Assembly (NCBI GenBank): GCA_051531975.1
Contig: JAOPTT010000009.1
Coordinates: 1 to 64,000, forward strand
Origin: Spirochaetaceae bacterium
GTDB taxonomy: Bacteria; Spirochaetota; Spirochaetia; DSM-2461
Length of the DNA: 64,000 nt
Reading direction: 5' to 3'
The position numbers and the translations under genes are program-made. Within the stretch, counting starts at the first letter, position 1. Every line of letters starts with the position of its first letter. The notes beneath the pieces are model-generated. The model saw only the letters and a program-made list of their open reading frames with translations. It was not told the origin of the DNA and made no database searches. This document shows, piece after piece, positions 42,174-54,326 of the stretch.

Positions 42174-43688
42174 ATGAATAAGAAAGTACAAGAGTTATTA
42201 CAATTACCAGTTTTATCTATATTTTTATTATTAACAGTAGGAACTTCATTTTCAAGCCATATGTTTTTAGACGGCGTTACAATGGCTGCAATATCCCGTA
42301 ACCTTTCAGTAGGTCTTGGATCATATTGGGACATGTTTTATACAACAGACATTAATCATTTTATTTCACATCCCCCTTTTGGTTTGTGGTTAGAATCAAT
42401 TTTATTTAGAATTATTGGAGATAAACCATGGGTTGAGTCTCTGTTTGGATGGTCACTAGGTATTTTCTCGATATATTTAATATCAAAGCTATGGAAAAAG
42501 GTTACAGGTAAGACCAGTGGTTCATGGTGGGTTATATTAATTACTCTTTTTAGCCCAATATTAACATGGTGTTTTAATAATAATATGCTTGAAAATAGTG
42601 TTGTTGTATTACTTTTAATTTATACATTATTGGTGATTGAAGCCTTTAATTCCAATAATATTCTAAAGCTTTCATTATTTTCACTATCATCTGGTATTAT
42701 AATGTTTTTAGCTTTATCTACTAAAGGACCACCAACACTGTTTCCCATAATACTACCACTGGTTATTCCTCTTTTTCTGAAAAAGTTCAGTATAAAAAAA
42801 GGTTTAACTATTTTAAGCTTAATCTTATTAACAATTATGTTATCAGTTGGTATTACATATTTAATTAGTGGAGATGAATTTATGAGATTCATTAGTAGAT
42901 ATATTCGCCACCAGTTATTACCTAGTATAAACGGTGATGTTGAAGTTTCCCCTAATAGGTTACTAATATTACAAATCCTACTTAAACAACTGCTTTTAGG
43001 ACTAATATTGATAGTTATATCGATAACTACTATTACCAAGAAAAAAAATATTTTAAAGGAAAATAGCTGGATTATTGTTCTTATTGTCTTGGGACTTGCC
43101 GGAAGTTTACCTTTCTTGATTTTTAAAAAACAGATGGCTTGGTATTTAATGCCAAGTATTCCATTCTTTACTATAGCAATAAGTATTTTAACAGCTCCCA
43201 TTGCAGAAAAAATAGAGGTGTTTATATATAAAAAAATAGGAGTTTTCAATAATATTATTACAATTTTCACGGCCTGTTTAGTATTGATTTCTCTATTTTC
43301 AACCACTATATATAAAGGTAAATCATATTTAGCTCCTGAAATTGTAATAAGAGATATTTTTTCTTCAGGTAAAGATGGATCAAATAAAGATAAAGCAAGA
43401 TTTTATAGTGAATATACATGGCAAAATTTCAACCTAGATATTGTAAATCAGAAAGTTGAAATCCCAGTAGGAAGTAGTATCGCTACTCAAGAAACACTAC
43501 ACGATTTTTGGCGAATGAATGCTTATTTTCAGAGAGTTTATAGTGCTAATCTTAGTCTTAGAATAAAAAGTGATGGTGACTTCTTTATAGCTGGGGAAGT
43601 ATCAAAAGATAATTTTTCTCCATTTGGTTTTAGACCTATTAGTAATAAAAAGGCTGTTTATAACTTTTTTGAAAAAACAAACAAATGA
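42174..43688 (+). CDS. GT-C membrane glycosyltransferase (ArnT/PMT-like)
   Basis: Multi-TM; DG near the N-terminus, SHPPF, NMLE, TKGP. Confidence 0.8.
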   Translation: MNKKVQELLQLPVLSIFLLLTVGTSFSSHMFLDGVTMAAISRNLSVGLGSYWDMFYTTDINHFISHPPFGLWLESILFRIIGDKPWVESLFGWSLGIFSIYLISKLWKKVTGKTSGSWWVILITLFSPILTWCFNNNMLENSVVVLLLIYTLLVIEAFNSNNILKLSLFSLSSGIIMFLALSTKGPPTLFPIILPLVIPLFLKKFSIKKGLTILSLILLTIMLSVGITYLISGDEFMRFISRYIRHQLLPSINGDVEVSPNRLLILQILLKQLLLGLILIVISITTITKKKNILKENSWIIVLIVLGLAGSLPFLIFKKQMAWYLMPSIPFFTIAISILTAPIAEKIEVFIYKKIGVFNNIITIFTACLVLISLFSTTIYKGKSYLAPEIVIRDIFSSGKDGSNKDKARFYSEYTWQNFNLDIVNQKVEIPVGSSIATQETLHDFWRMNAYFQRVYSANLSLRIKSDGDFFIAGEVSKDNFSPFGFRPISNKKAVYNFFEKTNK

Positions 43689-44047
43689 GAAGCTGTAAAG
43701 TTTATTAGGAAAGCAGTTAATATTCCTATTCCTTGTGGAATCGTTTTATAAGGTATATTGGGAAAAACTGTAAGCAGAAGATTTAGAACTATTAAATTGA
43801 TTAGTAGTCCTACTAATGAAACCGATACAAACTTTACATATCGAACAAATGTTAATGAAGCACCTTTATACGTCCACAGGGTATTTATTATATAGTTCTG
43901 AGATACCGCAATAATAAAACATATAATAGCTGCTATATTTTTATCTAACATATATCTATCTGCGATTATATAAAAAATGATTAAGTTTGTTATTAACCCT
44001 AAGGAGCCAACTAGACCAAAACTTATTAGACGCTTAAATATATTCAT
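43658..44047 (-). CDS. GtrA family flippase-like protein
   Basis: FGLVG...N, QNYIIN..WTY, KFVSVS..GL.IN, NFTAS..FVF. Confidence 0.85.
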   Translation of the reverse strand: MNIFKRLISFGLVGSLGLITNLIIFYIIADRYMLDKNIAAIICFIIAVSQNYIINTLWTYKGASLTFVRYVKFVSVSLVGLLINLIVLNLLLTVFPNIPYKTIPQGIGILTAFLINFTASHLFVFSKKL

Positions 44048-44748
44048 TTGATAAATCTTAAAAGCCAAACTTTAAATAATGCTTCAAAATATATTTTTAA
44101 ACTCATTTTAGATTTACCAGCACTACGTTCAATAAAAACGATAGGAAATTCTAAAAAACTAAAACCATTTTTAATTGCCCTAGTTTTTAGTTCAATCTGA
44201 AACATATAACCCTTTGATATTATAGAATCAAAATTGATAGATTCTAATACTTCTTTTTTCCAAAAATTGAAGCCACCAGTCATATCTTTTATTCCACTTT
44301 GTAGAATTATTCTAGAATATAATGACCCATATGAGGATATAATACTTCTAAACCGACTCCACCCTTCAATACCTCCGCCATTAATATATCTAGAGCCAAT
44401 TACAAAATCACACTTCTCATCAAATTTAGACATCATGGATTTTAAATACTTGGGTTGGTGGGAAAAGTCAGCATCAAATTGACATATATAATCATAATTG
44501 CTATTTAAAGCCCATTTAAATCCTTGAATATATGCGTAAGCTAACCCTTCTTTAATTTTACTTTCCACTAGATAAAGGTTTTTAGTTCGAATCATAAGGT
44601 CTTTTACACATAAGTTAGTACCATCGTTTGAATTACCGTCAACTACTAAAATATCTACATGGGGACAGTTACTAAAAACTTTAGTAATAATATGGCTAAT
44701 ATTTTCAATTTCGTTATATGTTGGTATTATAATCAAGTTTTTTGACAT
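44044..44748 (-). CDS. Polyprenol monophosphomannose synthase-like GT2
   Basis: IIPTYNE, DADFSHQP, IGSRY..GG, DMTGGF, GYMFQIE, ER..GKSKM. Confidence 0.9.
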   Translation of the reverse strand: MSKNLIIIPTYNEIENISHIITKVFSNCPHVDILVVDGNSNDGTNLCVKDLMIRTKNLYLVESKIKEGLAYAYIQGFKWALNSNYDYICQFDADFSHQPKYLKSMMSKFDEKCDFVIGSRYINGGGIEGWSRFRSIISSYGSLYSRIILQSGIKDMTGGFNFWKKEVLESINFDSIISKGYMFQIELKTRAIKNGFSFLEFPIVFIERSAGKSKMSLKIYFEALFKVWLLRFIK

Positions 44749-44827
44749 AATGCCATAATAAAGCTTCATATTATAGCTGTCAATAATAAAGCTTGTCAGA
44801 GATTATCATATATATTATTATCAAATA
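44749..44827. promoter_or_regulatory. Back-to-back sigma70 promoters, both abutting start codons
   Basis: Minus: TTGACA(44783-44778)-17-TATTAT-6-ATG 44748; plus: TTGTCA(44793-44798)-17-TATTAT-6-ATG 44828. Confidence 0.7.
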
Positions 44828-45472
44828 ATGAAAAAGCTCATCATACTTTTTATATCAATCCAATCAATATATTCAAATAATTTTGACCAGTTAAACCAAG
44901 CAATTAAAAAATTAGATTATGACAAAACATTATTGAGTTTTGAAGCTGAAACAACAATATCTAATTATAATAAGATTACAGCTAAAACTTTAGTTAAATA
45001 TGATCCAAAGAATAAAGACCCTTATAGTTTGTTATTAAAAGATGATAAACCTCCTACTGAAATAGACATTAAAAAATATAAAAAACAGAGAAGTAAAAAC
45101 AAAAGTTTTAGTGCTGTAGATTATTTAGGAAAAACATTTACCTTTGTCTCTCAAGAAGATGATATTGCATATTATACCTTCACTTCGAAAAAAAATATTA
45201 TCCCAGGTTTTCCTTCAAAAATGCCAGGAAGATTATGGCTAGATGTGACAAATAAAATGATTACAAAAGTTGAAATATTAAACAAAGAAAAAAAAGTCAT
45301 ATTCCCAGGTGTTTCTCTGAATATGTTTATAATGGAACTTAAATTTTTACCATTTAATAAAGATATTACAGTTTTAGATTCAATGGATACATTTATAGAT
45401 GCCAAAATCTTTACTAAAAAGCTTAAACAAAAAATTAAAACAAGAACAAAGAACTATCTATCTGTCCCTTAG
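44828..45472 (+). CDS. Exported hypothetical protein
   Basis: 214-aa ORF with short signal peptide MKKLIILFISIQSIYS; beta-rich GRLWLD segment. Confidence 0.7.
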   Translation: MKKLIILFISIQSIYSNNFDQLNQAIKKLDYDKTLLSFEAETTISNYNKITAKTLVKYDPKNKDPYSLLLKDDKPPTEIDIKKYKKQRSKNKSFSAVDYLGKTFTFVSQEDDIAYYTFTSKKNIIPGFPSKMPGRLWLDVTNKMITKVEILNKEKKVIFPGVSLNMFIMELKFLPFNKDITVLDSMDTFIDAKIFTKKLKQKIKTRTKNYLSVP

Positions 45473-45487
45473 TGACGATGCAAGAAT

Positions 45488-45528
45488 TAAATAATTATAT
45501 TGTCATAATTATTTATAGCATATATAAT
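45488..45528 (+). promoter_or_regulatory. Promoter of the radical SAM/Tat cluster with an inverted repeat over the -35
   Basis: TTGTCA(45500)-17 bp-TATAAT(45523); TAAATAATTAT-N6-ATAATTATTTA at 45488-45515. Confidence 0.6.
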
Positions 45529-45562
45529 TTGGTATAATTTTAAAAAAAATGGATGGTATAAA

Positions 45563-46573
45563 ATGGCTAATATTCTCCTTACCGAACAGTGCGTAAGATC
45601 ATGCCCATATTGTTTTGCTAAGAAACATATGGAGAATTCTGAAAATAAAAACTTGCAATGGGAAGATTTTATTTATATTGTTGATCTTTTTGAAAAGAGA
45701 AACCCTAGATATATGTCTCTTTTAGGTGGAGAACCTACTCTACATAAACATTTTGTAGACTTTGTTTTATACTTAATAAATAGAGATTTTGGTGTAACAG
45801 TTTTTACAAGTGGTATTATGAGTCCTTCTAAATTAGAGGCTTTAAAAAAGGCTTTAGCAGAGTTTCCAAAAGCAAAGGTAAGTTTTGTTGTAAATCTAAA
45901 TCATCCATCAATGTCTGATGAGAAAGAACTAGAGAGAATTGATGCATTTCTAGATGAGTTTGGAGAGAGTTGTACTTTAAGTTTTAACTTTTATACGTTA
46001 GATATGGAGATGGAATATCTTTTTGATTATATTGAAAGATTTAACTTAAATAGACATATTCGAATCGGTTTAGCTCATCCAATTCCAGGAGAAAAAAACC
46101 TTTGTATTCCTACTGACCAATTTGACGAAATGGTCGAAAAATTAGCAACATATATACCTATGTTTATTAAATATAGAGTTAGCCCTGGGTTTGATTGTGG
46201 ATTCCCACTTTGTAAATTTACCGATGATCAATTAGGTAAATTTAAGAAATTAGAAAAAGGTAATGGCTCAGGTTCTGTTAAATTTGGTTGTAATGCTGCA
46301 ATTGATATTGGTCCAGATATGACTGTATGGTCTTGTTTCCCTTTATCTAAGTATCATAGAAAAAGTCTATATGACTTTGATTCAGTTGATGCTGTTTATG
46401 AGTATTATCAAACAATGCATTATAATGTGAGAGATAAAAAAGCTGGAGTTTTTGAAGAGTGTGAAGGATGCCGATATCAAGAAAGTGAGTTATGTAAAGG
46501 TGGTTGTCTTGCGCATATAGTTAATACTGATGAAAGCATTATTAAGGAGGCTAGTGGTGTTAAACGTAACTAA
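45563..46573 (+). CDS. Radical SAM/SPASM protein
   Basis: CVRSCPYC, LGGEP, C...IGPD.TVWSC, CEGC...CKGGC. Confidence 0.92.
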   Translation: MANILLTEQCVRSCPYCFAKKHMENSENKNLQWEDFIYIVDLFEKRNPRYMSLLGGEPTLHKHFVDFVLYLINRDFGVTVFTSGIMSPSKLEALKKALAEFPKAKVSFVVNLNHPSMSDEKELERIDAFLDEFGESCTLSFNFYTLDMEMEYLFDYIERFNLNRHIRIGLAHPIPGEKNLCIPTDQFDEMVEKLATYIPMFIKYRVSPGFDCGFPLCKFTDDQLGKFKKLEKGNGSGSVKFGCNAAIDIGPDMTVWSCFPLSKYHRKSLYDFDSVDAVYEYYQTMHYNVRDKKAGVFEECEGCRYQESELCKGGCLAHIVNTDESIIKEASGVKRN

Positions 46574-47429
46574 AAAAATAATTGTTGCTGCTTATGAGCC
46601 AAAGTTTGCAAATGATATTGGTAAACAGAAAATAGTATATTACACAGATAAATTAGAAGACGTTCTTACAATTTATGGTGATGCCATAGATAAAAACGAA
46701 CTTATGTGTATAAAAGTTGATACTGATAAAAATCTATCTGAACTTGAATTTAAAGATGAATGGCAAAGTATTCCAATTGCCCTTTATACTCCATCTGTTG
46801 GTGATCTATCAGAGATGTTAATACAGGGTAAGAAACTAAAAAAGTTTAATATCCAGATTTTCTTACCAATAGAAAATAAAGATACAATTAGAGATCTTAG
46901 AATACTTTCTTCTGTCGGTATCAATTGTGGTTTTTATATTAAAGATGAAAATTCAGATGTAGACTGGGAACAAGTTGATGATCTTTTTTATTACTATGCT
47001 TATACAAATACTGAAAAAGGAAATATAGAACCTTTTAGATATATAATTGAAAAAGACTATAGAGAAAAATCATTTGATTTTAGAGCTGTAATATTTGATG
47101 ATCCAAATAAATTTGTTTATGTAGACAAGGATTTTAACTATTCAGTAAATCTTGATGAACTTACTAAAGGTTCTTTTCTTGGTAATGGAATTGATGAGTT
47201 AAAATCATATATAAATGAAGAAATAGATTATGTTTCAAAAAAATCAGATATGTTTTCTAAAAATGAAATCTGTTCATACTGTAGTAGTTGGAGGTTTTGT
47301 AGATCTAATTATTTTTCTCAATGTCAAAAGAATGAAACATATAAAATGTTGTTTGATAGTGTTTCTGATTATCTTGAAGTTCGAGTAAAACAACCATCTC
47401 AGAATGTGGAAAAAAAATGGCAGTTATAA
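46557..47429 (+). CDS. Hypothetical protein with a C-terminal SPASM-like Cys cluster and no CxxxCxxC
   Basis: CSYCSSWRFC...C; AAGGAGG RBS before GTG 46557; overlaps both neighbours. Confidence 0.7.
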   Translation: MLNVTKKIIVAAYEPKFANDIGKQKIVYYTDKLEDVLTIYGDAIDKNELMCIKVDTDKNLSELEFKDEWQSIPIALYTPSVGDLSEMLIQGKKLKKFNIQIFLPIENKDTIRDLRILSSVGINCGFYIKDENSDVDWEQVDDLFYYYAYTNTEKGNIEPFRYIIEKDYREKSFDFRAVIFDDPNKFVYVDKDFNYSVNLDELTKGSFLGNGIDELKSYINEEIDYVSKKSDMFSKNEICSYCSSWRFCRSNYFSQCQKNETYKMLFDSVSDYLEVRVKQPSQNVEKKWQL

Positions 47430-48523
47430 TTTTTAAGGCTATTGAATATTGTAATTCAAATTGTATTTATTGCAGCGTTATAGAGAAAGATGAAGGCCAT
47501 ACTATGAGTTATGAAAGGCTTGAAACTGTTTTTATACGTATGAACCAATATTTGGAAGAACTTCCAGACGAGATAATCGATTTTACTTGGCATGGAGGGG
47601 AAGCAACCTTATTAGGTCCTGAATATTTTAGAAAAGCTTTAGAGTTTCAGAATGTTCACTGCAAAAAGACTAAGAATAGGATTAAGCATATAATACAATC
47701 TAATTTAACATGTATTACCCAAGAAATTATTGATGTTCTTAAAGACCTAGGTATAAACTCAATAGGATCAAGTTATGATCCTATTGAGGGAATTAGAGGG
47801 ATTGGTAAAAATAGAGACTCTAAATTATATAAAGAATTGTTTTTTAAAGGTGTTGATTTAGTTGAGAAAAATGGAATGACTTGGGGGATTATTTATGTTG
47901 TTCATAGAAGATCTTTAGAAGACCCCGTAGGAATTTTTAACCATTTGTCAAACTTAAATTTAGGCACATCTCCTGTTTTTAACTGTATATATTTGTACGA
48001 GGATGATAAACATCATTTAAGTATTACCCCCGAAGAGTTTGCGGACTTTTTAGGAGCTCTTGTCCCTTTATATATGGAAAATCCTGAAAAATATAAATCT
48101 ATACGACCACTAAGCATGTTTATTGACTCTATAAAAGAAAAAACACCATTAGGTTGTGATTATGCAGGAAATTGTGCAAATTATTGGCTATATATTGGAC
48201 CTACTGGTGAACTATCCCACTGTGGTAGAGCAGGTGATCAAAGAATAATAAGTTATGGAAATATCGACGATACTAGCCTAAAGGAAGCACTAAATCATCC
48301 TTACCGGAAAAAAATACTTGCTAGACAGACGTATTTGGTTGATAATGATTGTAAAGGCTGTAAATATTGGGGCATATGCCATGGTGGATGTCCAGTGGAT
48401 GCATTGTCTATGACTGGTGACATTATGAATAAAGCTATGTCATGCGAAATGGTAAAAAGATTAATGTCAAAATATATTGAACCCTTAGTTGATAAAGAAG
48501 TGCAATTTTATCCTAATAATTAA
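47417..48523 (+). CDS. Radical SAM/SPASM peptide maturase-type enzyme (anSME-like)
   Basis: CNSNCIYC, WHGGE, QSN, SYD; full SPASM C..C..G..C...CKGCKYWGICHGGCP...C. Confidence 0.92.
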   Translation: MAVIIFKAIEYCNSNCIYCSVIEKDEGHTMSYERLETVFIRMNQYLEELPDEIIDFTWHGGEATLLGPEYFRKALEFQNVHCKKTKNRIKHIIQSNLTCITQEIIDVLKDLGINSIGSSYDPIEGIRGIGKNRDSKLYKELFFKGVDLVEKNGMTWGIIYVVHRRSLEDPVGIFNHLSNLNLGTSPVFNCIYLYEDDKHHLSITPEEFADFLGALVPLYMENPEKYKSIRPLSMFIDSIKEKTPLGCDYAGNCANYWLYIGPTGELSHCGRAGDQRIISYGNIDDTSLKEALNHPYRKKILARQTYLVDNDCKGCKYWGICHGGCPVDALSMTGDIMNKAMSCEMVKRLMSKYIEPLVDKEVQFYPNN

Positions 48524-48553
48524 AGTTAGGTTTTATATAAAGAGGTGTGAATT

Positions 48554-48760
48554 ATGAATGAGAAAGAAATCATGGAAACTGGATCAGAGAGCAAAGTAAT
48601 TTCTAGAAAGGAAGCTTTAAAAAGAATTTCTAAGATCGGTTTAGGTATTGGTGCTGCAGTTGTTGCTACAAGTTGTGATCTTTATTATTACGACTATACT
48701 TATAGTGACTATAGTGATTATTATTACAGCTACTATGTTTATACAAACTACTACTGGTAA
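48554..48760 (+). CDS. Putative RiPP precursor: Tat-type lipoprotein signal plus Tyr-rich core
   Basis: GAGGTG RBS; SRKEALK, h-region IGLGIGAAVV, ATS-C, core CDLYYYDYTYSDYSDYYYSYYVYTNYYW. Confidence 0.8.
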   Translation: MNEKEIMETGSESKVISRKEALKRISKIGLGIGAAVVATSCDLYYYDYTYSDYSDYYYSYYVYTNYYW

Positions 48761-48763
48761 TCT

Positions 48764-48970
48764 ATGCTGAGTTTTGTAGAGATTGCAATAGTAGGTGGAG
48801 CGATTCTTTTAATTTTTGGATCAACGAAACTTCCAAAATTGGGCCGAACAATGGGTCAAAGTTTGACAGAGTTTAAAAAAGGACTTAAAGAGGGTATGAC
48901 AGATACTAATGTTACTGATGAAAAGAAAGATGAAGAAGTAGCTGATAAGTCTGATATTGTGAATGAGTAA
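48764..48970 (+). CDS. tatA: Twin-arginine translocase TatA/TatE
   Basis: EI...LLIFGSTKLPKLGRTMGQSLTEFKKG. Confidence 0.93.
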   Translation: MLSFVEIAIVGGAILLIFGSTKLPKLGRTMGQSLTEFKKGLKEGMTDTNVTDEKKDEEVADKSDIVNE

Positions 48971-49673
48971 TACATTAACATTTTTTGAACACGTCAAAGA
49001 ACTTAGAAATAAATTAGGAATCTCTTCCATTGTATTTGTAGTGGCATCTGTGTTTGGTTACATAATTTTTCCATCTGTAATTAGTTATTTTAATAACTTT
49101 TTAGATGTAGGACTTCATGTAACCAAATTATATGAGGGCTTTTTTATGCGAGTGCAGGTTTCTCTTTATATTGGTCTTATATTTTTTATACCAGTTTTTT
49201 TATTAAATCTTTTGTTATTTATAGTCCCAGGTTTTGAGAAAGGTGATAAAGCAGTATTTGTTTCATTATTTCTTCTCAGTATCATTTTGTATGTAGTTGC
49301 TATACTTTCAGTTAGTATCTTTTTACCTATCACTATAAATTTTCTTCAATCAAAATCTTTTATTCCTGATACTCTTAATAAGATATTTTCATATGGTGAA
49401 TTTATAGATTTCTTTTTTACTTTTTTGTTAGCATTTTGTGTATCATTACAGTTTCCAGTTGTATTATTGGTTTTGCTGTATTTCAAAATATTAAAAACTG
49501 CTTGGTTAACTAAGTTTATTCCATACTTTGTTCCTGTTGCATTATTGTTGTCAGCAATAATGACTCAAGATATACTTTCTCAATTTTTGGTTGCAGTACC
49601 ACTGTTTGTTTTATATTTATTGTGTATCTTAGCTGCAAAGAAGTTAAAATGGGGTGTTGATGATATTTCTTGA
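48963..49673 (+). CDS. tatC: Twin-arginine translocase TatC (divergent)
   Basis: EHVKELRNKL, FIVPG, QFPV, TQD..SQ...AVP...LY; about 6 TM segments. Confidence 0.88.
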   Translation: MSNTLTFFEHVKELRNKLGISSIVFVVASVFGYIIFPSVISYFNNFLDVGLHVTKLYEGFFMRVQVSLYIGLIFFIPVFLLNLLLFIVPGFEKGDKAVFVSLFLLSIILYVVAILSVSIFLPITINFLQSKSFIPDTLNKIFSYGEFIDFFFTFLLAFCVSLQFPVVLLVLLYFKILKTAWLTKFIPYFVPVALLLSAIMTQDILSQFLVAVPLFVLYLLCILAAKKLKWGVDDIS

Positions 49674-51288
49674 AATAATTGCAATTCTTTTTATTATTTT
49701 TATTATTAATCCACAAAACTCTGTTTCTATGTTACGGAAAGCTGGTGTTTTAGTTGGAAAATTAAGAAAAGTAATAAATCAATTAAAATCTTATTCTAAA
49801 GACTTTAATATAACTAATCTTGATAATGAAGTTGCAGGTAATAAAAATAGTGGGGTAAATGTTAATAATGGAAAAGCTGACCATTCAACCACAGTAACAA
49901 AGATGGTTCTTTTAGATGTTATTGAAGCTAGTTATAGTATTAACATGACAAAAAATATAATTCCTTTTCTATTTGATAACAATCCAGATATTGTAAGTAA
50001 AACTATTACTATCTTAAAAAAGGATCCTCTGTTTTCATTTGAAAAGAGAGATTCATTTAGTAACTGGAATGTTGAAAAATTAGTAAGGAATCCCAATTCA
50101 GAATATTTTAATAAGGTTTTTGATCCTAATAGAGTTGCTGAAGTATCAGGAGCTATCTTTAGTATTCCTAAGGAATCTTTTGAGAAACATTATAAAAATC
50201 TCGCTGACTTTAACGGTATAGATAATTTAAACATGAAAACAATATTTTCTAAAGATAAAAGCTCATTTTTTGGTGAGTTTAAAAACTTAAGAAAAAAATA
50301 TATCGCTAAGTGCTATCCTCCACAGGGATTTGTATCACCTAGTTATAGATGTAATCTAGATTGTTCCTATTGTTTTTCTAAAGACTTATTGCAAAAATTT
50401 AATAACGATATGACAGTTGAACAATTTACATTGTATTTAAAAAAGCTTAAGGCTGACTATAATATTAAGGAAATTGGATTTTTTGGTGGTGAACCAACTT
50501 ATTTCAAAAAATTAAATGAGTTTATAGATGTAGTTGAAAATGAAAAACTATTTTGTAATATTGCCTCAAATGGTATTGTTGAAAATCAAATCTGGGAAAA
50601 AATTGTTTCTAGAGGTAGTCTAGCAATGATTACATTTCATATTGAGGATAATGATTTTTATACTAACGATACCCACTTACCTAATATTATATCTAATATT
50701 AAAAGTGCTAACCAATTTAAAAAACAGATAACTTTTAGATATAATATCGTAGATAGTGAGAGAACTGATTGGAGTTTTCTAAATAAATATATTGATTTAG
50801 TTTCACAGTTTAGGTTTAGTTTTGCTATTCCATTTCCTTCTGGTAATGGTGAAAACGAATATGTATCATTAGATGAGTTAAATAAATTTGGAAAAACAAT
50901 TGTTTCTATGATCGATCATATAGATTTTTATAGTAGAAATAGACCATATGAAATTGTATTAGCTAAACCTATACCTCTATGTGTTTTCTCTGAAAAAGAA
51001 TATTTGAGAATTTTAGAAAAAGTCAGATACAAAAATGTATGTGAAATTGATAAAAATAATAATACAAATAATCTTATAATTAATCCTGATGGTTCATACC
51101 AGTCATGTGTAGGTTTAAATAAAGACAAGTACATATTCAATGACTTTTTAGGTCAAGAGTCTCTTCCTAGCAGTTATCATATGAATATTGATAGAGTTAT
51201 AAATAAACCAATGATGGATGACTGTAAAAAGTGTTATCTATTTAATATCGGAGTCTGCCAAGGGGCTTGTTATGCCTACACCCAGTAA
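49660..51288 (+). CDS. TatB-like N-terminus fused to a radical SAM/SPASM domain
   Basis: LEIIAILFIIFIINPQN TM plus amphipathic helix; CNLDCSYC (50350-50373), FGGEP, INPDG.YQSC, CKKC...CQGAC. Confidence 0.8.
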   Translation: MIFLEIIAILFIIFIINPQNSVSMLRKAGVLVGKLRKVINQLKSYSKDFNITNLDNEVAGNKNSGVNVNNGKADHSTTVTKMVLLDVIEASYSINMTKNIIPFLFDNNPDIVSKTITILKKDPLFSFEKRDSFSNWNVEKLVRNPNSEYFNKVFDPNRVAEVSGAIFSIPKESFEKHYKNLADFNGIDNLNMKTIFSKDKSSFFGEFKNLRKKYIAKCYPPQGFVSPSYRCNLDCSYCFSKDLLQKFNNDMTVEQFTLYLKKLKADYNIKEIGFFGGEPTYFKKLNEFIDVVENEKLFCNIASNGIVENQIWEKIVSRGSLAMITFHIEDNDFYTNDTHLPNIISNIKSANQFKKQITFRYNIVDSERTDWSFLNKYIDLVSQFRFSFAIPFPSGNGENEYVSLDELNKFGKTIVSMIDHIDFYSRNRPYEIVLAKPIPLCVFSEKEYLRILEKVRYKNVCEIDKNNNTNNLIINPDGSYQSCVGLNKDKYIFNDFLGQESLPSSYHMNIDRVINKPMMDDCKKCYLFNIGVCQGACYAYTQ

Positions 51289-52195
51289 GGTTGGAGTCAA
51301 TTACATAATATTCAATGAACTCTGGGACGATGTTTTAGAAAATGAAAGTAATCAACCTATTAAGACAATTGAGCTAAATAAGTTAAAAACTATATATTTT
51401 GACTATTTATCAAATGCTTTAAAAAACCTACAACAATCACATACAAATATCGCAGTAACTGTTTGGCTAATTGAGATTTCTGAATCAGGTATAAAAGAAG
51501 TCGATCTTAGAGAGCAATTATTTAATACATTACCATACGTAAGAATTTATACAATTCCATTCATGAAAATAAGAAATTATATTTCAGCTGCAAAGAGACT
51601 AGCAAAAGGATTATATAGATCTCCTAATGAATTACACGAATTTTTAATTCTACATATAATAAAACTATCAACAACTCCTTATATTGCTATTTTAGACACT
51701 GATAATCTATTTCTAAGGCAAGATGCTTTGAATATTATTTTCCAATCATTAGAAGAAGATAAAGATAAATGGATAGGTTGTATCATGGAAAAAGGTATTA
51801 AGAGACCTTATAACGATGGATTCACTCAAATGAGAGAGAGAATGCATAGTGTAGCCCTTTTTATTATTAAAGATCGATTTAATAAAGGATTTACTGAGAC
51901 AACAAATTGGCGGATAGATACTTTTGATAAAGTTAAATTAATACAAAATGATGAATGCAGAGATTATTATCATAAGTATAAATTCTTCGATACTTTGGCG
52001 TTGTTAACCGATCTATTTAAATATAACTTTGGTGTAAATAGAATAAAAGAGTTAAACAAAGAATTAAACTCCCAAGAGTTTGAAAAATTAACCATAGTTA
52101 ACGATCTTTTTGTTCATAGTAAATATTTGCATGGAATAGATTATATTTTTGAAAACTTAAAAGATAATAAATTCATTTCTTCAATTCAAAGGTAA
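51272..52195 (+). CDS. Glycosyltransferase-like (GT-A, DxD) hypothetical protein
   Basis: H...L...TTPYIAILDTDNLF, late FVH; AAGGGG RBS before ATG 51272; overlaps the upstream gene. Confidence 0.55.
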   Translation: MPTPSKVGVNYIIFNELWDDVLENESNQPIKTIELNKLKTIYFDYLSNALKNLQQSHTNIAVTVWLIEISESGIKEVDLREQLFNTLPYVRIYTIPFMKIRNYISAAKRLAKGLYRSPNELHEFLILHIIKLSTTPYIAILDTDNLFLRQDALNIIFQSLEEDKDKWIGCIMEKGIKRPYNDGFTQMRERMHSVALFIIKDRFNKGFTETTNWRIDTFDKVKLIQNDECRDYYHKYKFFDTLALLTDLFKYNFGVNRIKELNKELNSQEFEKLTIVNDLFVHSKYLHGIDYIFENLKDNKFISSIQR

Positions 52196-52202
52196 AAAAA
52201 GT

Positions 52203-52255
52203 CTTTTACGACTAAAGTATGATGTTATTAATCACTTTTACACCTATAGTCTGAT
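52203..52255 (+). promoter_or_regulatory. 21-bp direct repeat pair with 32-bp period (candidate LuxR-type sites)
   Basis: CTTTTACGACTAAAGTATGAT / CTTTTACACCTATAGTCTGAT, 17/21 identical. Confidence 0.55.
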
Positions 52256-52303
52256 ATCGTTTTAATATATTAAATACTAATCTTATCTTATATGGAGGTC
52301 GCA

Positions 52304-53536
52304 ATGTCAATGTATAAAATAGTATTAGTAATAATTAGTATTTCACTTCTATTTTCATGTACAGAGCAAGAGTATTTAGAATTAACGGGTGATTATTCTA
52401 TTGGAACATCAGTTTTTGAATTAGAAGACAAATCAAGGTTAGAATATTATTCTGAGGAAGTATCTGAAAATAGAACAATTGTAATCAGAGCATGGTATCC
52501 AATTGAAGCCAAATCGGGTAAAACACTTCCACAATATAATGGTAAGGGAGTAGCAAAAGAATTTCAAAAACTTTTTGGTATACCTTCCTTTTTAATGAAA
52601 GATAATATTGGAAGAGCCTATACTGATGGAAGCCCTTTAAAAGGTAAATATCCTGTAGTCATTTTTAATCATGGTTTTAGTTCATGGGAATCTCAAAATG
52701 CTACAACAATGGAAGAAATAAGTTCCAACGGTTATGTTGTGCTAAGTATAAATCATCCATACGAAAGCCTTTTTACTCAATTTAATAATATGGATAGTGT
52801 TAAATTCTCTATACCTGGTTATAAAGATAAGCTTAAAGCTATGAATAAAGATATTGATGATATAACTAACGAGTTAATACAAATGGTTAAAACTATTAAA
52901 GAAGCAACTACTGAGAAGTTATATAAAGAAGCTGTTATTAAAATTACTCAATCAAAGGCTTACAAACCTGTTTTCCCATCTTTAAAATTGTGGATTGAAG
53001 ATACAGCTTTTTTAATCTCATCTCTAAATGATATTAATTTAAGTAATATAATCGACAGTGATAATATTGCAGTTATAGGTCACTCTTTTGGAGGACTTGT
53101 ATCTAGTGAACTTTCAATGTTAGGAATTAGTGGTATTAAGTGTGGCATAAGTTATGATGGACCTGTTCTATTTGATAATATGAATAAAGATATTTCTCTG
53201 AAAACCCCATTTCTATTTTTAGCAAGTACCAATGCTAAGTATGGAAAAACTGTTGTTGATCTGTCAGGTCAAAATGATTTTTTAACAACAAAAACTGATA
53301 AAAAAGTTATTTCAGGCTCAATAAATGGTAGTGGGCATTATAATTTTTCAGATATGGGTTATGTCTCTTTTCTTAAAAGAACATCGATGTTAGGTCCTAT
53401 TGATGGAGTTAAGTCGTTACAAATTATGAATGGTATAACACTGTCTTATTTAGACCATCATTTAAAAGGTGAAGTTGATCCAACCAATTCTTGGTTAAAA
53501 ATTTACCCTGAATGGAATGTAAGCAGATCTAACTAA
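52304..53536 (+). CDS. Alpha/beta hydrolase lipoprotein (PAF-acetylhydrolase-like)
   Basis: Lipobox LFSC, PVVIFNHG, NHPYE, GHSFGG, HYNFSD. Confidence 0.87.
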   Translation: MSMYKIVLVIISISLLFSCTEQEYLELTGDYSIGTSVFELEDKSRLEYYSEEVSENRTIVIRAWYPIEAKSGKTLPQYNGKGVAKEFQKLFGIPSFLMKDNIGRAYTDGSPLKGKYPVVIFNHGFSSWESQNATTMEEISSNGYVVLSINHPYESLFTQFNNMDSVKFSIPGYKDKLKAMNKDIDDITNELIQMVKTIKEATTEKLYKEAVIKITQSKAYKPVFPSLKLWIEDTAFLISSLNDINLSNIIDSDNIAVIGHSFGGLVSSELSMLGISGIKCGISYDGPVLFDNMNKDISLKTPFLFLASTNAKYGKTVVDLSGQNDFLTTKTDKKVISGSINGSGHYNFSDMGYVSFLKRTSMLGPIDGVKSLQIMNGITLSYLDHHLKGEVDPTNSWLKIYPEWNVSRSN

Positions 53537-54326
53537 GACCAACTAGTTCAAATCTACTATTAACACCAGTTTTTTTAAAAATGTTTGTTATATGTGTTTT
53601 GACTGTGGGTATTGATATAAATAGTTCTTCGCTAATTTGTCTGTTTGATTTTCCTTTTAAAATATAATGTACAACCTCTTCCTCTCTGGGGGAGAGGCCT
53701 TCAATTTTTTTTGTGTTAATGTTATGTGTAATACTCGTATAATAAAGAATACAGTATAAAAGATATATGAATGGATATAGACGAATAGGTAAGGTATCTT
53801 GAGATATTATATCAAAAGCTATTAATGGAAGAAGAATCATATCATATTTTGAACTCTGTTTTTCAAACTTGGTTTTGTTCTTTTTAATTACACTACCAAA
53901 CATCGTAAATGCAAATAGAATAACAATAAATATCCGTATATAATTTACATGTGGAGATAATATTGTAATAAAATTATTTTCAATTTTCATAACAAATAAG
54001 ATAGATATTAAAATTATCAAACCACTAAAAATGTAAAATGCCAAAATTGGTTTTAAATATTTATGGTGCTTATATTGTAATTTAACAAGGCTTAACATAA
54101 ATAATATGACCATAATAGAAGTTGAATAATTTAGAATATAAATTATTGAAGGGTGAATTGAACTTATATTAATATTTAGATAAAAAATTATTAGTGTTAA
54201 TAATTGAAGTATTGTAAAAGTACAAAAGACCCAGAAATATTCTGAGTTAAGATTTTTTAATTTTTTTAGTATAAGTACACCTGCAACAATTATCGATGCA
54301 AGGTATAGGATGTAAATATGAATCAT
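53529..54326 (-). CDS. Membrane-bound LuxR family regulator
   Basis: Multi-TM N-terminus; LSPREEEV...GKSNRQISEELFISIPTVKTH. Confidence 0.9.
   Translation of the reverse strand: MIHIYILYLASIIVAGVLILKKLKNLNSEYFWVFCTFTILQLLTLIIFYLNINISSIHPSIIYILNYSTSIMVILFMLSLVKLQYKHHKYLKPILAFYIFSGLIILISILFVMKIENNFITILSPHVNYIRIFIVILFAFTMFGSVIKKNKTKFEKQSSKYDMILLPLIAFDIISQDTLPIRLYPFIYLLYCILYYTSITHNINTKKIEGLSPREEEVVHYILKGKSNRQISEELFISIPTVKTHITNIFKKTGVNSRFELVGLS

Follow-up and report, generated by a model that had tools for sequence, protein, structure and literature searches.

A tyrosine-rich peptide with a predicted twin-arginine lipoprotein signal, encoded beside radical-SAM enzymes and tatA-tatC in a spirochaete

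Introduction

The systems closest to the locus described here are radical S-adenosylmethionine (SAM) pathways of the darobactin and triceptide type, which belong to the ribosomally synthesised peptides with post-translational modifications (RiPPs). The maturase DarE cross-links aromatic residues by an ether and a C-C bond (PMC9055067). Triceptides carry the motif omega1-X2-X3 and daropeptides the motif omega1-X2-omega3, and a common origin is described for three-residue cyclophane enzymes and daropeptide maturases (PMC12912966). Several motifs per triceptide core are known (three in MicA), and characterised triceptides are freed by proteolysis before the first motif (PMC12912966). As to signal peptides, about 16% of the Buf2 bufferin precursors have lipoprotein signals, Sec signals are rare among RiPPs, and RiPPs with signal peptides raise the problem of avoiding export before modification (PMC12452194); the main text of that paper contains neither "Tat" nor "twin-arginine". 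Lipoproteins and export through the twin-arginine translocation (Tat) pathway are compatible, and twin-arginine lipoprotein signals are known (bioRxiv 10.1101/2023.11.02.564894). The present work concerns a small tyrosine-rich peptide and the gene cassette around it, in a 64,000-nucleotide stretch of a Spirochaetaceae genome (assembly GCA_051531975.1, contig JAOPTT010000009.1, positions 1 to 64,000; hereafter "the window"). The peptide gene lies at 48554-48760.

We show that the predicted operon at 45563-51288 encodes three radical-SAM enzymes (here rSAM1, rSAM2 and rSAM3, the last being a TatB-like fusion), one radical-SAM-fold pseudo-enzyme (B299), the peptide, TatA and TatC. The first 40 residues of the precursor appear to have a double function, as leader and as twin-arginine-type lipoprotein signal. 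The peptide is likely to be a substrate of the neighbouring enzymes, and on balance the sequence data favour a complete chain in which a RiPP-like precursor would be modified in the cytoplasm, exported by Tat and lipidated at Cys41, with the chemistry left generic.

Precursor gene and core

The precursor gene (48554-48760, forward strand, as are all genes and elements of the cassette named below) is an open frame of 68 codons and no internal stop, with a Shine-Dalgarno-like AAGAGGTG at 48540-48547, 6 nt upstream of the ATG. Its translation is MNEKEIMETGSESKVISRKEALKRISKIGLGIGAAVVATSCDLYYYDYTYSDYSDYYYSYYVYTNYYW (68 aa), which can also be written MNEKEIMETGSESKVISRKEALKRISKIGLGIGAAVVATSC-DLYYYDYTYSDYSDYYYSYYVYTNYYW. 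The signal or leader part (residues 1-40, 48554-48673) consists of an acidic, Lys-containing n-region, the stretch S-R-K-E-A-L-K-R, the hydrophobic region ISKIGLGIGAAVVA, which is rich in Gly and Ala, and a lipobox-like V-A-T-S preceding Cys41; S-R-K-E-A-L-K occupies residues 17-23. The core (48674-48760) begins with Cys41, the putative lipidation site, and continues with DLYYYDYTYSDYSDYYYSYYVYTNYYW, with the stop codon at the end. From Cys41 onward there are 28 residues, 14 of them Tyr, with the triads YYD, YSD, YSD and YTN and a terminal Trp. S-R-K-E-A-L-K, the Gly/Ala-rich stretch, V-A-T-S-C with Cys41 at 48674, the 14 Tyr, the four triads and the terminal Trp had been listed in a first-pass annotation made from the sequence, and each of them was re-found in the translation.

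A chance or simple-repeat open reading frame (ORF) was considered and ruled out. The source genome (G000; 31.5% GC) has 33,683 stop-to-stop frames that are 40 aa or longer, and only two of them hold at least 12 Tyr within 20 residues, namely the precursor and the frame of a (TAT)n microsatellite, so the Tyr density is not a mere artefact of AT-richness. Tandem Repeats Finder reports a single 9-nt unit in 2.3 copies, showing that the precursor DNA is not a simple repeat, and orthologues with the same gene order recur in other genomes, some of visibly higher G+C. A leader motif, RR(D/E)A(L/I)KR, and a Tyr-rich tail come back in the set of 41 related peptides. On these comparisons the precursor is a real, conserved gene. 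The microsatellite (contig C8, about 136970, forward strand) encodes about 24 consecutive Tyr when read in one frame, has no signal, and looks like simple-repeat DNA.

Pfam and NCBIfam hold no family for the precursor peptide, and a protein-homologue search with the single peptide returned one further match (P0013, E 4e-5). A short low-complexity query suits such searches poorly, and relatives were reached via rSAM2 instead. An rSAM2 alignment was run against one genome per species, which gave 69 loci, 41 of them (L010-L050) with close relatives. Among the 41 related genomes searched, orthologues of the window peptide occur in four (G000, G022, G037 and G039), each with the same gene order.

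The core motif was evaluated on 35 cores of the wider family. Of 457 Asp/Asn residues, 378 (83%) have Tyr, Trp or Phe at i-2, as compared with 205 +/- 8 (45%; maximum 233) in 500 composition-preserving shuffles, and 77% of core Asp/Asn are then followed by an aromatic residue. Taken together, these two regularities give the repeat unit Y-x-(D/N)-Y. The related peptides all have Tyr-rich tails based on this unit; the first-pass annotation had proposed to check in orthologues whether a YxD periodicity is conserved. The middle residue differs by lineage (S, A, T, Y, G, K, R), and the spacing of Tyr and Asp/Asn is constant. In the window core all four Asp/Asn past the N-terminal Cys-Asp have Tyr at i-2 (four of five if that Asp is counted). 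The window triads YYD, YSD, YSD and YTN have the triceptide form omega1-X2-X3; daropeptide-like triads of the Tyr-x-Tyr type (YYY, YDY, YTY, YSY, YVY, YYW) are present in the same core as well. Tail length ranges from 27 residues after the Cys in the window, the shortest of the 35 cores, to more than 200 in Bacteroidales relatives, and 8 of the 35 cores end in or near Trp. We put the chance that the core carries three-residue aryl cross-links a little below even.

Leader peptide and Tat translocase

In 38 of the 41 peptides collected from related loci the leader contains R-R, in the form (S/T/M/K)RR(D/E/N/Q)A(L/I/M)(K/R/E)R, the exceptions being the window peptide with R-K, L041 with C-R and L013 with R-G. 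Close orthologues have (S/T)RR(D/E)ALKR(I/M)A. Natural and engineered RK and KR variants that still use Tat are known. With the Tat-signal model TIGR01409, scores of 11.8-16.1 bits were obtained for six of the 13 family peptides compared, and the window peptide has no match. The sub-threshold matches of the peptides are all to Tat-signal N-termini (TIGR01409, formate dehydrogenase TAT target, iron oxidase, MelC1, MsrP and Rieske TAT signal). The lipobox V-A-T-S-C41 of the window has its counterpart, (A/V/L)(T/S/A)SC, at the same place in all seven spirochaete-type peptides. In the family overall, 17 of 35 peptides have a Cys straight after the h-region, with Asp or Glu as the +2 residue in 14 of the 17, and lipidation would be a feature of some clades and not a family-wide rule. 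The genome encodes Lgt (PF01790, one match, 195.6 bits) and LspA (PF01252, two matches, 99.7 and 62.9 bits). We consider export of the peptide by Tat to be likely, and its lipidation in this organism to be rather more probable than the opposite.

The gene tatA (48764-48970; 68 aa; Pfam TatA_B_E 51.5 bits, cut-off 21) begins 3 nt after the precursor stop, and tatC (48963-49673; 236 aa; Pfam TatC 116.2 bits) overlaps tatA by 8 nt. In the source genome the cassette TatA is the sole PF02416 match and the cassette TatC the sole TatC. No TIGR01409 match was found genome-wide, in a search that was positive in 12 of 14 control genomes. A heuristic motif scan of the same genome gave 61 N-terminal candidates, mostly very hydrophobic Sec-type or membrane segments, and none with S/T-R-R-x-F-L-K. 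In G022, G037 and G039 the sole TatC is likewise that of the cassette; these genomes have 0, 0 and 1 TIGR01409 matches (the last with 17.1 bits), and two relatives with a housekeeping Tat system have 4 and 2. In the remaining three genomes of the window's genus both the cassette and TatC are absent. From these counts, the cassette translocase appears to have a single client, the precursor. As a separate observation, in two genomes with housekeeping Tat (G006 and G011) four of six TIGR01409 matches lie within about 5 kb of tatC (for example, 220846 and tatC at 224889 in G011, and 4480626 and tatC at 4481992 in G006), and Tat clients of this spirochaete family often seem to be encoded beside the translocase.

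A TatC tree separates the spirochaete cassette TatCs, which make up a clade with support 96/83, from the same family's housekeeping TatCs (97/94); within the cassette clade those of G000 and G022 are sisters (100/100). A tatC gene lies inside 8 of the 41 related loci. Ten cassette genomes without an adjacent tatC were checked, and all ten have one elsewhere.

A possible third Tat component is part of rSAM3 (49654-51288; 544 aa), which comprises a TatB-like module, a disordered linker, a helical domain at about residues 74-220 and a radical SAM/SPASM-like domain (CNLDCSYC). Three elements make up the TatB-like module (49654-49818), namely a transmembrane helix that carries an invariant Glu, a hinge Pro, which is invariant too, and an amphipathic helix. 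An alignment of the N-termini of five orthologues (about 45 residues) reads MFKLxFxEILL...(S/A/N/D)Pxx(I/V)P...R..G, in which Glu and Pro are invariant. E. coli TatB has E8 and a Gly-Pro hinge. A profile of these N-termini (A2, five orthologues) finds among Protein Data Bank (PDB) sequences the TatB homologue 9e02_F as best match (E 8e-5, positions 1-48), and TatB chains are four of its five best PDB matches. Using hhalign, the N-terminus aligns with the cassette TatA at E 8.7e-5 and a probability of 60%. The homologue P0006 has a precomputed PF02416 match beside PF04055, and rSAM3 homologues elsewhere (about 490 aa) are without the N-terminal module. The AlphaFold2 (AF2) model of rSAM3 contains a helix at 2-18, a kink, a helix at 20-46 (per-residue confidence, pLDDT, 48-63), a disordered linker, a confident helical domain at about 74-220 and the radical-SAM barrel. 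On these comparisons the N-terminus reads as a TatB-derived membrane anchor. A complex prediction of TatC with residues 1-60 of rSAM3 gave a score of 0.00 and was run without controls, and hence weighs neither way on binding.

Radical-SAM enzymes

The enzyme encoded next to the precursor is rSAM2 (47417-48523; 368 aa), with CNSNCIYC at residues 12-19. Its Pfam scores for Radical_SAM (37.4 bits) and SPASM (24.9 bits) are both above cut-off, and TIGR04085 gives 46.5 bits for a cut-off of 27; by motif and SPASM domain it is a member of the radical SAM/SPASM superfamily. The best NCBIfam models, with the cut-off after the score in bits, are DynA (137.7/450), DarE (131.9/650) and anSME (128.1/349). 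Models of cyclophane maturases follow, namely GrrM/OscB (81.3/310), AmcB (73.5/425), YhhB (60.6/445), XyeB (49.1/450) and FxsB (31.6/370). The only solved relative by sequence is anSME 4k37 (E 1.5e-16). Among the enzymes of the cassette rSAM2 is the most likely peptide cross-linker. When the metatranscriptome of the same sample was compared with the cassette, a single 161-nt contig matched, at 47437-47597 (the start of rSAM2), and none matched the peptide gene; DNA carry-over is possible, and the result is uninformative on expression of the peptide.

The cassette opens with rSAM1 (45563-46573; 336 aa), which has CxxxCxxC at residues 10-17 and a SPASM-like Cys-rich C-terminus. It scores 56.3 bits with Pfam Radical_SAM and 21 bits with SPASM TIGR04085, under the cut-off of 27. 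Its best NCBIfam matches cover the N-terminal part only (viperin-like, 37 bits; HxsC, 29.6 bits), and no solved structure is related to it by sequence.

B299 (46530-47429; 299 aa) has a radical-SAM/SPASM fold without CxxxCxxC, and keeps one CxxCx5C...C motif; its only invariant cysteines are C248, C251 and C257, and C271 is conserved at 90% or more. There is no match for it in Pfam or NCBIfam. The AF2 model (pLDDT 84.7, predicted template-modelling score 0.84) was aligned by VIA-align with anSMEcpe (4k39_B; Z 13.1, root-mean-square deviation 3.9, 257 residues), CteB (Z 11.6) and SuiB (Z 9.3). A Foldseek search of the model gave nothing at E of at most 0.001, the best match being CteB 5wgg at about 1e-3, and the fold assignment relies on the second look by VIA-align and not on Foldseek. 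By its model B299 is a radical-SAM/SPASM-fold protein that lacks the cysteines of the SAM cluster, and probably acts as a non-catalytic partner or scaffold. A B299 profile retrieves 431 cluster representatives at E of at most 1e-3, and 268 at E of at most 1e-30, among 1.84 billion.

The radical-SAM part of rSAM3 scores 47.5 bits with Pfam Radical_SAM, and the overall pLDDT of the model is 77.1. Its helical middle (residues 61-225) has no Pfam match. The GTG start at 49654 is provisional, given that the database copy P0002 (542 aa) begins two residues later. Orthologues of rSAM3 are present in the six spirochaete-type loci.

Cassette organisation and flanking genes

The cassette genes at 45563-51288 lie on one strand, and neighbouring genes overlap or are 3-30 nt apart, which indicates one operon. 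The stretch 44700-52400 showed no terminator-like site, again in keeping with a single operon. A promoter-like site at 45500-45528 (TTGTCA-17-TATAAT, 11/12), 35 nt upstream of rSAM1 and on the same strand, is a consensus match only, and a weak one, as such sites number 50 in the region and 50.3 are expected from shuffles. Composition was considered as a sign of recent transfer and is uninformative, since the GC content of the cassette (26-33%) is like that of the genome (31.5%).

The genes directly upstream encode a PMT_2-type GT-C glycosyltransferase (42174-43688, forward), a GtrA-family protein (43658-44068, reverse), and a GT2 glycosyltransferase (44044-44769, reverse); an ORF at 44828-45472 has no Pfam or NCBIfam family. 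Downstream, E325 (51218-52195) likewise has no Pfam or NCBIfam family. It is followed at 52292-53536 by a PAF-acetylhydrolase-like alpha/beta hydrolase whose N-terminus (LLFSCTEQ) resembles that of a lipoprotein, and at 53529-54326, on the strand opposite to the hydrolase, by a multi-pass membrane protein with a C-terminal LuxR/GerE helix-turn-helix. The PMT_2, GtrA and GT2 genes (42174-44769) resemble a module for periplasmic glycosylation from polyprenyl-phosphate sugars; Bacteroidales and Ignavibacteria cassettes have a GT9 gene instead. All seven flanking genes were considered as members of the system and rejected, having a counterpart in 0 of 69 related loci. As no flanking gene recurs, the limits of the cassette were set at 45563-51288.

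Distribution of related loci

The rSAM2 relatives in L010-L050 are 40-62% identical over the whole protein in 40 loci; that of L050 is a 77-residue fragment at a contig end. The 41 loci stand in records titled Spirochaetes, Bacteroidales, Ignavibacteria, Elusimicrobia, Deltaproteobacteria/Syntrophaceae, Nitrospirae and Thermodesulfobacteriota. rSAM1, B299 and rSAM2 occur together in 39 of them, the exceptions being a locus that begins inside B299 and L046. A Tyr-rich ORF with the leader motif adjoins this trio, from which the 41 peptides were collected; none was found in L036, L046 and L050, two of which (L036 and L050) are less than 3 kb long. In the source records the orthologous peptides, rSAM2 and GT9 are unnamed or "hypothetical protein".

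Several relatives depart from the arrangement in the window. Two Bacteroidales loci (L015:8028-8804 and L025:8052-8807) encode a signal, Cys and Tyr-rich region fused to a Peptidase_S74 intramolecular chaperone (E 2e-16 and 4e-16). The Peptidase_S74 domain is known from trimeric phage fibres and self-cleaves at a conserved Ser. The part before SD(R/S)RLKKNI ends in ...YYYNW in one and ...TDWY in the other; if the domain self-cleaves, these mature ends would resemble the ...NYYW of the window. Two further Bacteroidales loci (L037:6901-7631 and L039:7086-7721) have two tandem precursor genes each, with RR(D/N/E)ALKR leaders and (N/D)Y-x repeats, followed by tatA-tatC. Accessory genes include the GT9 glycosyltransferase gene of Bacteroidales and Ignavibacteria loci; elsewhere rSAM3 is followed by a YcaO-domain protein (L016:4682-5812), or the peptide by a B12-binding radical-SAM protein (L019:8377-9846). 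Such varying accessory genes are a pattern as seen in RiPP clusters.

Proposed mechanism and alternative explanations

Based on this dataset, we hypothesize that in the cytoplasm rSAM2, together with rSAM1 and B299 as scaffold, would abstract hydrogen from side chains of the precursor. This could place i-to-i+2 cross-links on Tyr-x-Asp/Asn, possibly also on Tyr-x-Tyr, in the form of C-C cyclophanes or ethers, and give a stiff polycyclic tail. Such a product could not thread unfolded via Sec and so would be handed to the cassette Tat. The TatB-like anchor may place rSAM3 at the TatC receptor for a last modification or check at the export site. After export, Lgt and LspA would lipidate Cys41 and remove the signal, leaving a 28-residue acylated Cys-Asp-Leu-(Tyr-rich) peptide anchored to a membrane at its periplasmic face. 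An envelope material is favoured over a diffusible antibiotic by relatives with long Tyr-rich tails, by the fusions to a fibre chaperone and by the anaerobic lineages that appear in the record titles. The role of the product is the weakest step of the proposal. It is likely to be a polyaromatic, cross-linked material of the envelope, formed without oxygen and with a structural, adhesive or redox/metal-binding role, and would be the anaerobe's counterpart of dityrosine-type cross-linking. A more specific version, in which a horizontally mobile cassette with its own Tat forms a modify-then-export machine, with TatB fused to a radical-SAM enzyme that acts on the precursor docked at the TatBC receptor, in a last radical modification or in proof-reading, and with a poly-cyclophane lipid-anchored Tyr peptide as sole client, is speculative, and we would not expect all of it to hold.

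A number of observations weigh against this proposal. Modification, export route and lipidation are all three deduced from sequence, and the source genome is metagenome-assembled (98.5% complete). Internal repeat expansion inflates the motif counts, which are not independent, and the period could be a structural repeat; the agreement between lineages with differing units is a better argument than the counts. The window peptide has R-K in place of consecutive Arg, none of 13 family peptides reaches the TIGR01409 cut-off of 16.7 bits (best 16.1), and 18 of 35 peptides are without Cys, so that the wider family is not uniformly lipidated. The first-pass annotation had called the leader a Tat lipoprotein signal and had stated beforehand that loss of the R-R/K pair or of the Cys among orthologues would speak against it. 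The arginine pair withstood this comparison (38 of 41), and the Cys did so in the spirochaete-type peptides (7 of 7), with tatA-tatC following 3 nt on; in the family overall the presence of the Cys (17 of 35) follows clades, and no peptide passes the Tat-signal model (0 of 13). PF02416 matches one of four isolated rSAM3 N-termini, with 12.4 bits for a cut-off of 21, and the TatB-like assignment is supported by profile matches at E of about 1e-4. G039 has one other weak Tat-signal match. In G040 (81% complete) a tatA-tatC pair (C4:17000-18300; L085, L093) falls into the cassette clade, although the sequence within 9 kb of it contains neither a radical-SAM gene nor a Tyr-rich peptide; a search of this incomplete genome for rSAM2 homologues gave none. 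Finally, on its scores rSAM2 is outside every characterised triceptide, DynA or DarE maturase family tested, all of them being under cut-off, and its anSME score nearly equals those of DynA and DarE.

The near-equal anSME score makes a chemistry other than three-residue cross-links possible for a radical-SAM substrate that is exported by Tat, such as oxidation of the beta-carbon of Ser, Thr or Asp in the manner of anSME, epimerisation, beta-hydroxylation, methylation, or Tyr-Tyr or longer-range links. The sole solved sequence relative is an anSME too, three distinct radical-SAM enzymes are unlikely to share one reaction, and many family cores are Ser-rich with YSSYSS runs. However, the anSME motif, Cys/Ser-x-Pro/Ala-x-Arg, is absent in the core, and it is the spacing of Tyr and Asp/Asn that is conserved across lineages, and not Ser. 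We regard such chemistries as unlikely, though worth keeping in view. An entirely unmodified peptide, that is, a low-complexity secreted or anchored protein forming an adhesive or amyloid-like Tyr/Asn/Ser zipper while the radical-SAM genes act elsewhere, would agree with Tyr/Asn/Ser-rich tails of 27 to more than 200 residues, a variation in length typical of structural repeat proteins. It would also agree with the two fusions to the chaperone of trimeric fibres and with a cassette that encodes neither the protease nor the ABC exporter typical of RiPP clusters. It is difficult to reconcile with the recurrence of rSAM1-B299-rSAM2 in 39 of 41 loci across many phyla, with a peptide in all but 3 of the 41, with the overlaps and 3-30 nt spacers that indicate one operon in the window, and with a B299 family of 431 representatives that is known only at this kind of protein length; we hold it to be quite improbable.

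The leader could be read differently as well, RR(D/E)ALKR being chiefly a motif recognised by the maturase, with export by Sec or Lol and the spirochaete tatAC genes serving another client. The motif is indeed longer and more invariant than the generic Tat consensus, the peptides fail the TIGR01409 cut-off, and the window copy is R-K; moreover, for RiPPs with Sec signals the signal peptide has been suggested to be part of the maturase recognition sequence (PMC12452194). On the other hand, G000, G022 and G037 contain no other Tat-signal match and have tatAC only in the cassette, tatA starts 3 nt after the peptide, and the weak matches of the family are all to N-termini of Tat substrates. The two roles are not mutually exclusive, and an exclusive role in maturase recognition has little probability in our view. 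Modification in the cytoplasm followed by Tat export remains the explanation that we prefer.

Comparison with known systems

In the full-text literature we found neither a Tat-signal Tyr-rich radical-SAM peptide nor a TatB-radical-SAM fusion; subscription papers (e.g. the original triceptide landscape papers) and supplements were outside the scope of this search. Within that scope, three features were not met with in print, namely the use of a Tat signal as leader, a Tat system that is borne by the cassette and has a single client, and a TatB-like enzyme fusion. Should the speculative modify-then-export version be true, there would be three firsts: a Tat-dependent RiPP, a RiPP that the general Lgt/Lsp pathway lipidates once radical-SAM enzymes have cross-linked it, and a fusion of an enzyme with the Tat translocon. 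If the general proposal holds, the system would stand for a large, phylum-spanning RiPP-like family with a Tat signal as leader, and with B299 (431 representatives, no curated model) as its marker. As Tat exports only finished, folded cargo, the system would be a natural answer to premature export. It would also be a minimal Tat system with one 68-residue client, in which the TatB-like fusion makes a hand-over at the TatBC receptor directly testable. The tandem Tyr-x-Asp/Asn units, which extend to more than 200 residues among Bacteroidales relatives, would offer aryl cross-linking a substrate of unusual density and may give new peptide materials, and anaerobes would have an oxygen-free route to cross-linked polyaromatic envelope material.

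Compared with daropeptides and dynobactin, the window system has DynA and DarE as the two best NCBIfam matches of rSAM2, and omega1-X2-omega3 triads in its core. It differs in that the core is Tyr-based and not Trp-based and has many tandem motifs, in that two further radical-SAM enzymes and a pseudo-enzyme are encoded, in that the precursor carries a putative Tat/lipoprotein signal where a plain leader would stand, and in that the cassette does not encode a dedicated ABC exporter. [quoted passage not shown] Unlike in triceptides, signal peptidase II would make the only obvious cut, which precedes the first Tyr by three residues, and the product would stay lipid-anchored.

The His-Xaa-Ser system is similar in having a three-residue repeat peptide (HxsA) beside two radical-SAM enzymes. 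There are weak matches of rSAM2 to HxsB and of rSAM1 to HxsC, and the family peptide of L019 weakly matches HxsA4 (E 0.005). With 60.7 bits for a cut-off of 370 (HxsB) and 29.6 for 267.9 (HxsC), however, the enzymes are not members of these families, and B299 matches no HxsD model. To our knowledge, Hxs peptides do not carry Tat signals.

Tat lipoproteins and TatABC systems resemble the window cassette in the basic pair of the n-region, the mild h-region, the lipobox Cys and a TatA and TatC that are canonical by Pfam. The cassette is different in its 28-residue cargo without a cofactor-bearing folded domain, in the fusion of the TatB-like module to a radical-SAM enzyme and in its apparently single client. 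In bufferins and oxazolins the signal peptide doubles as leader, and the RiPP is periplasmic and sometimes of lipoprotein type, as proposed here; the modifying enzyme is MNIO and not radical SAM, the target is Cys and not Tyr, and export is by Sec and not by Tat. In summary, and by analogy, the window system would work like a radical-SAM RiPP pathway of the darobactin/triceptide type, with a signal peptide used as leader as it is in bufferins.

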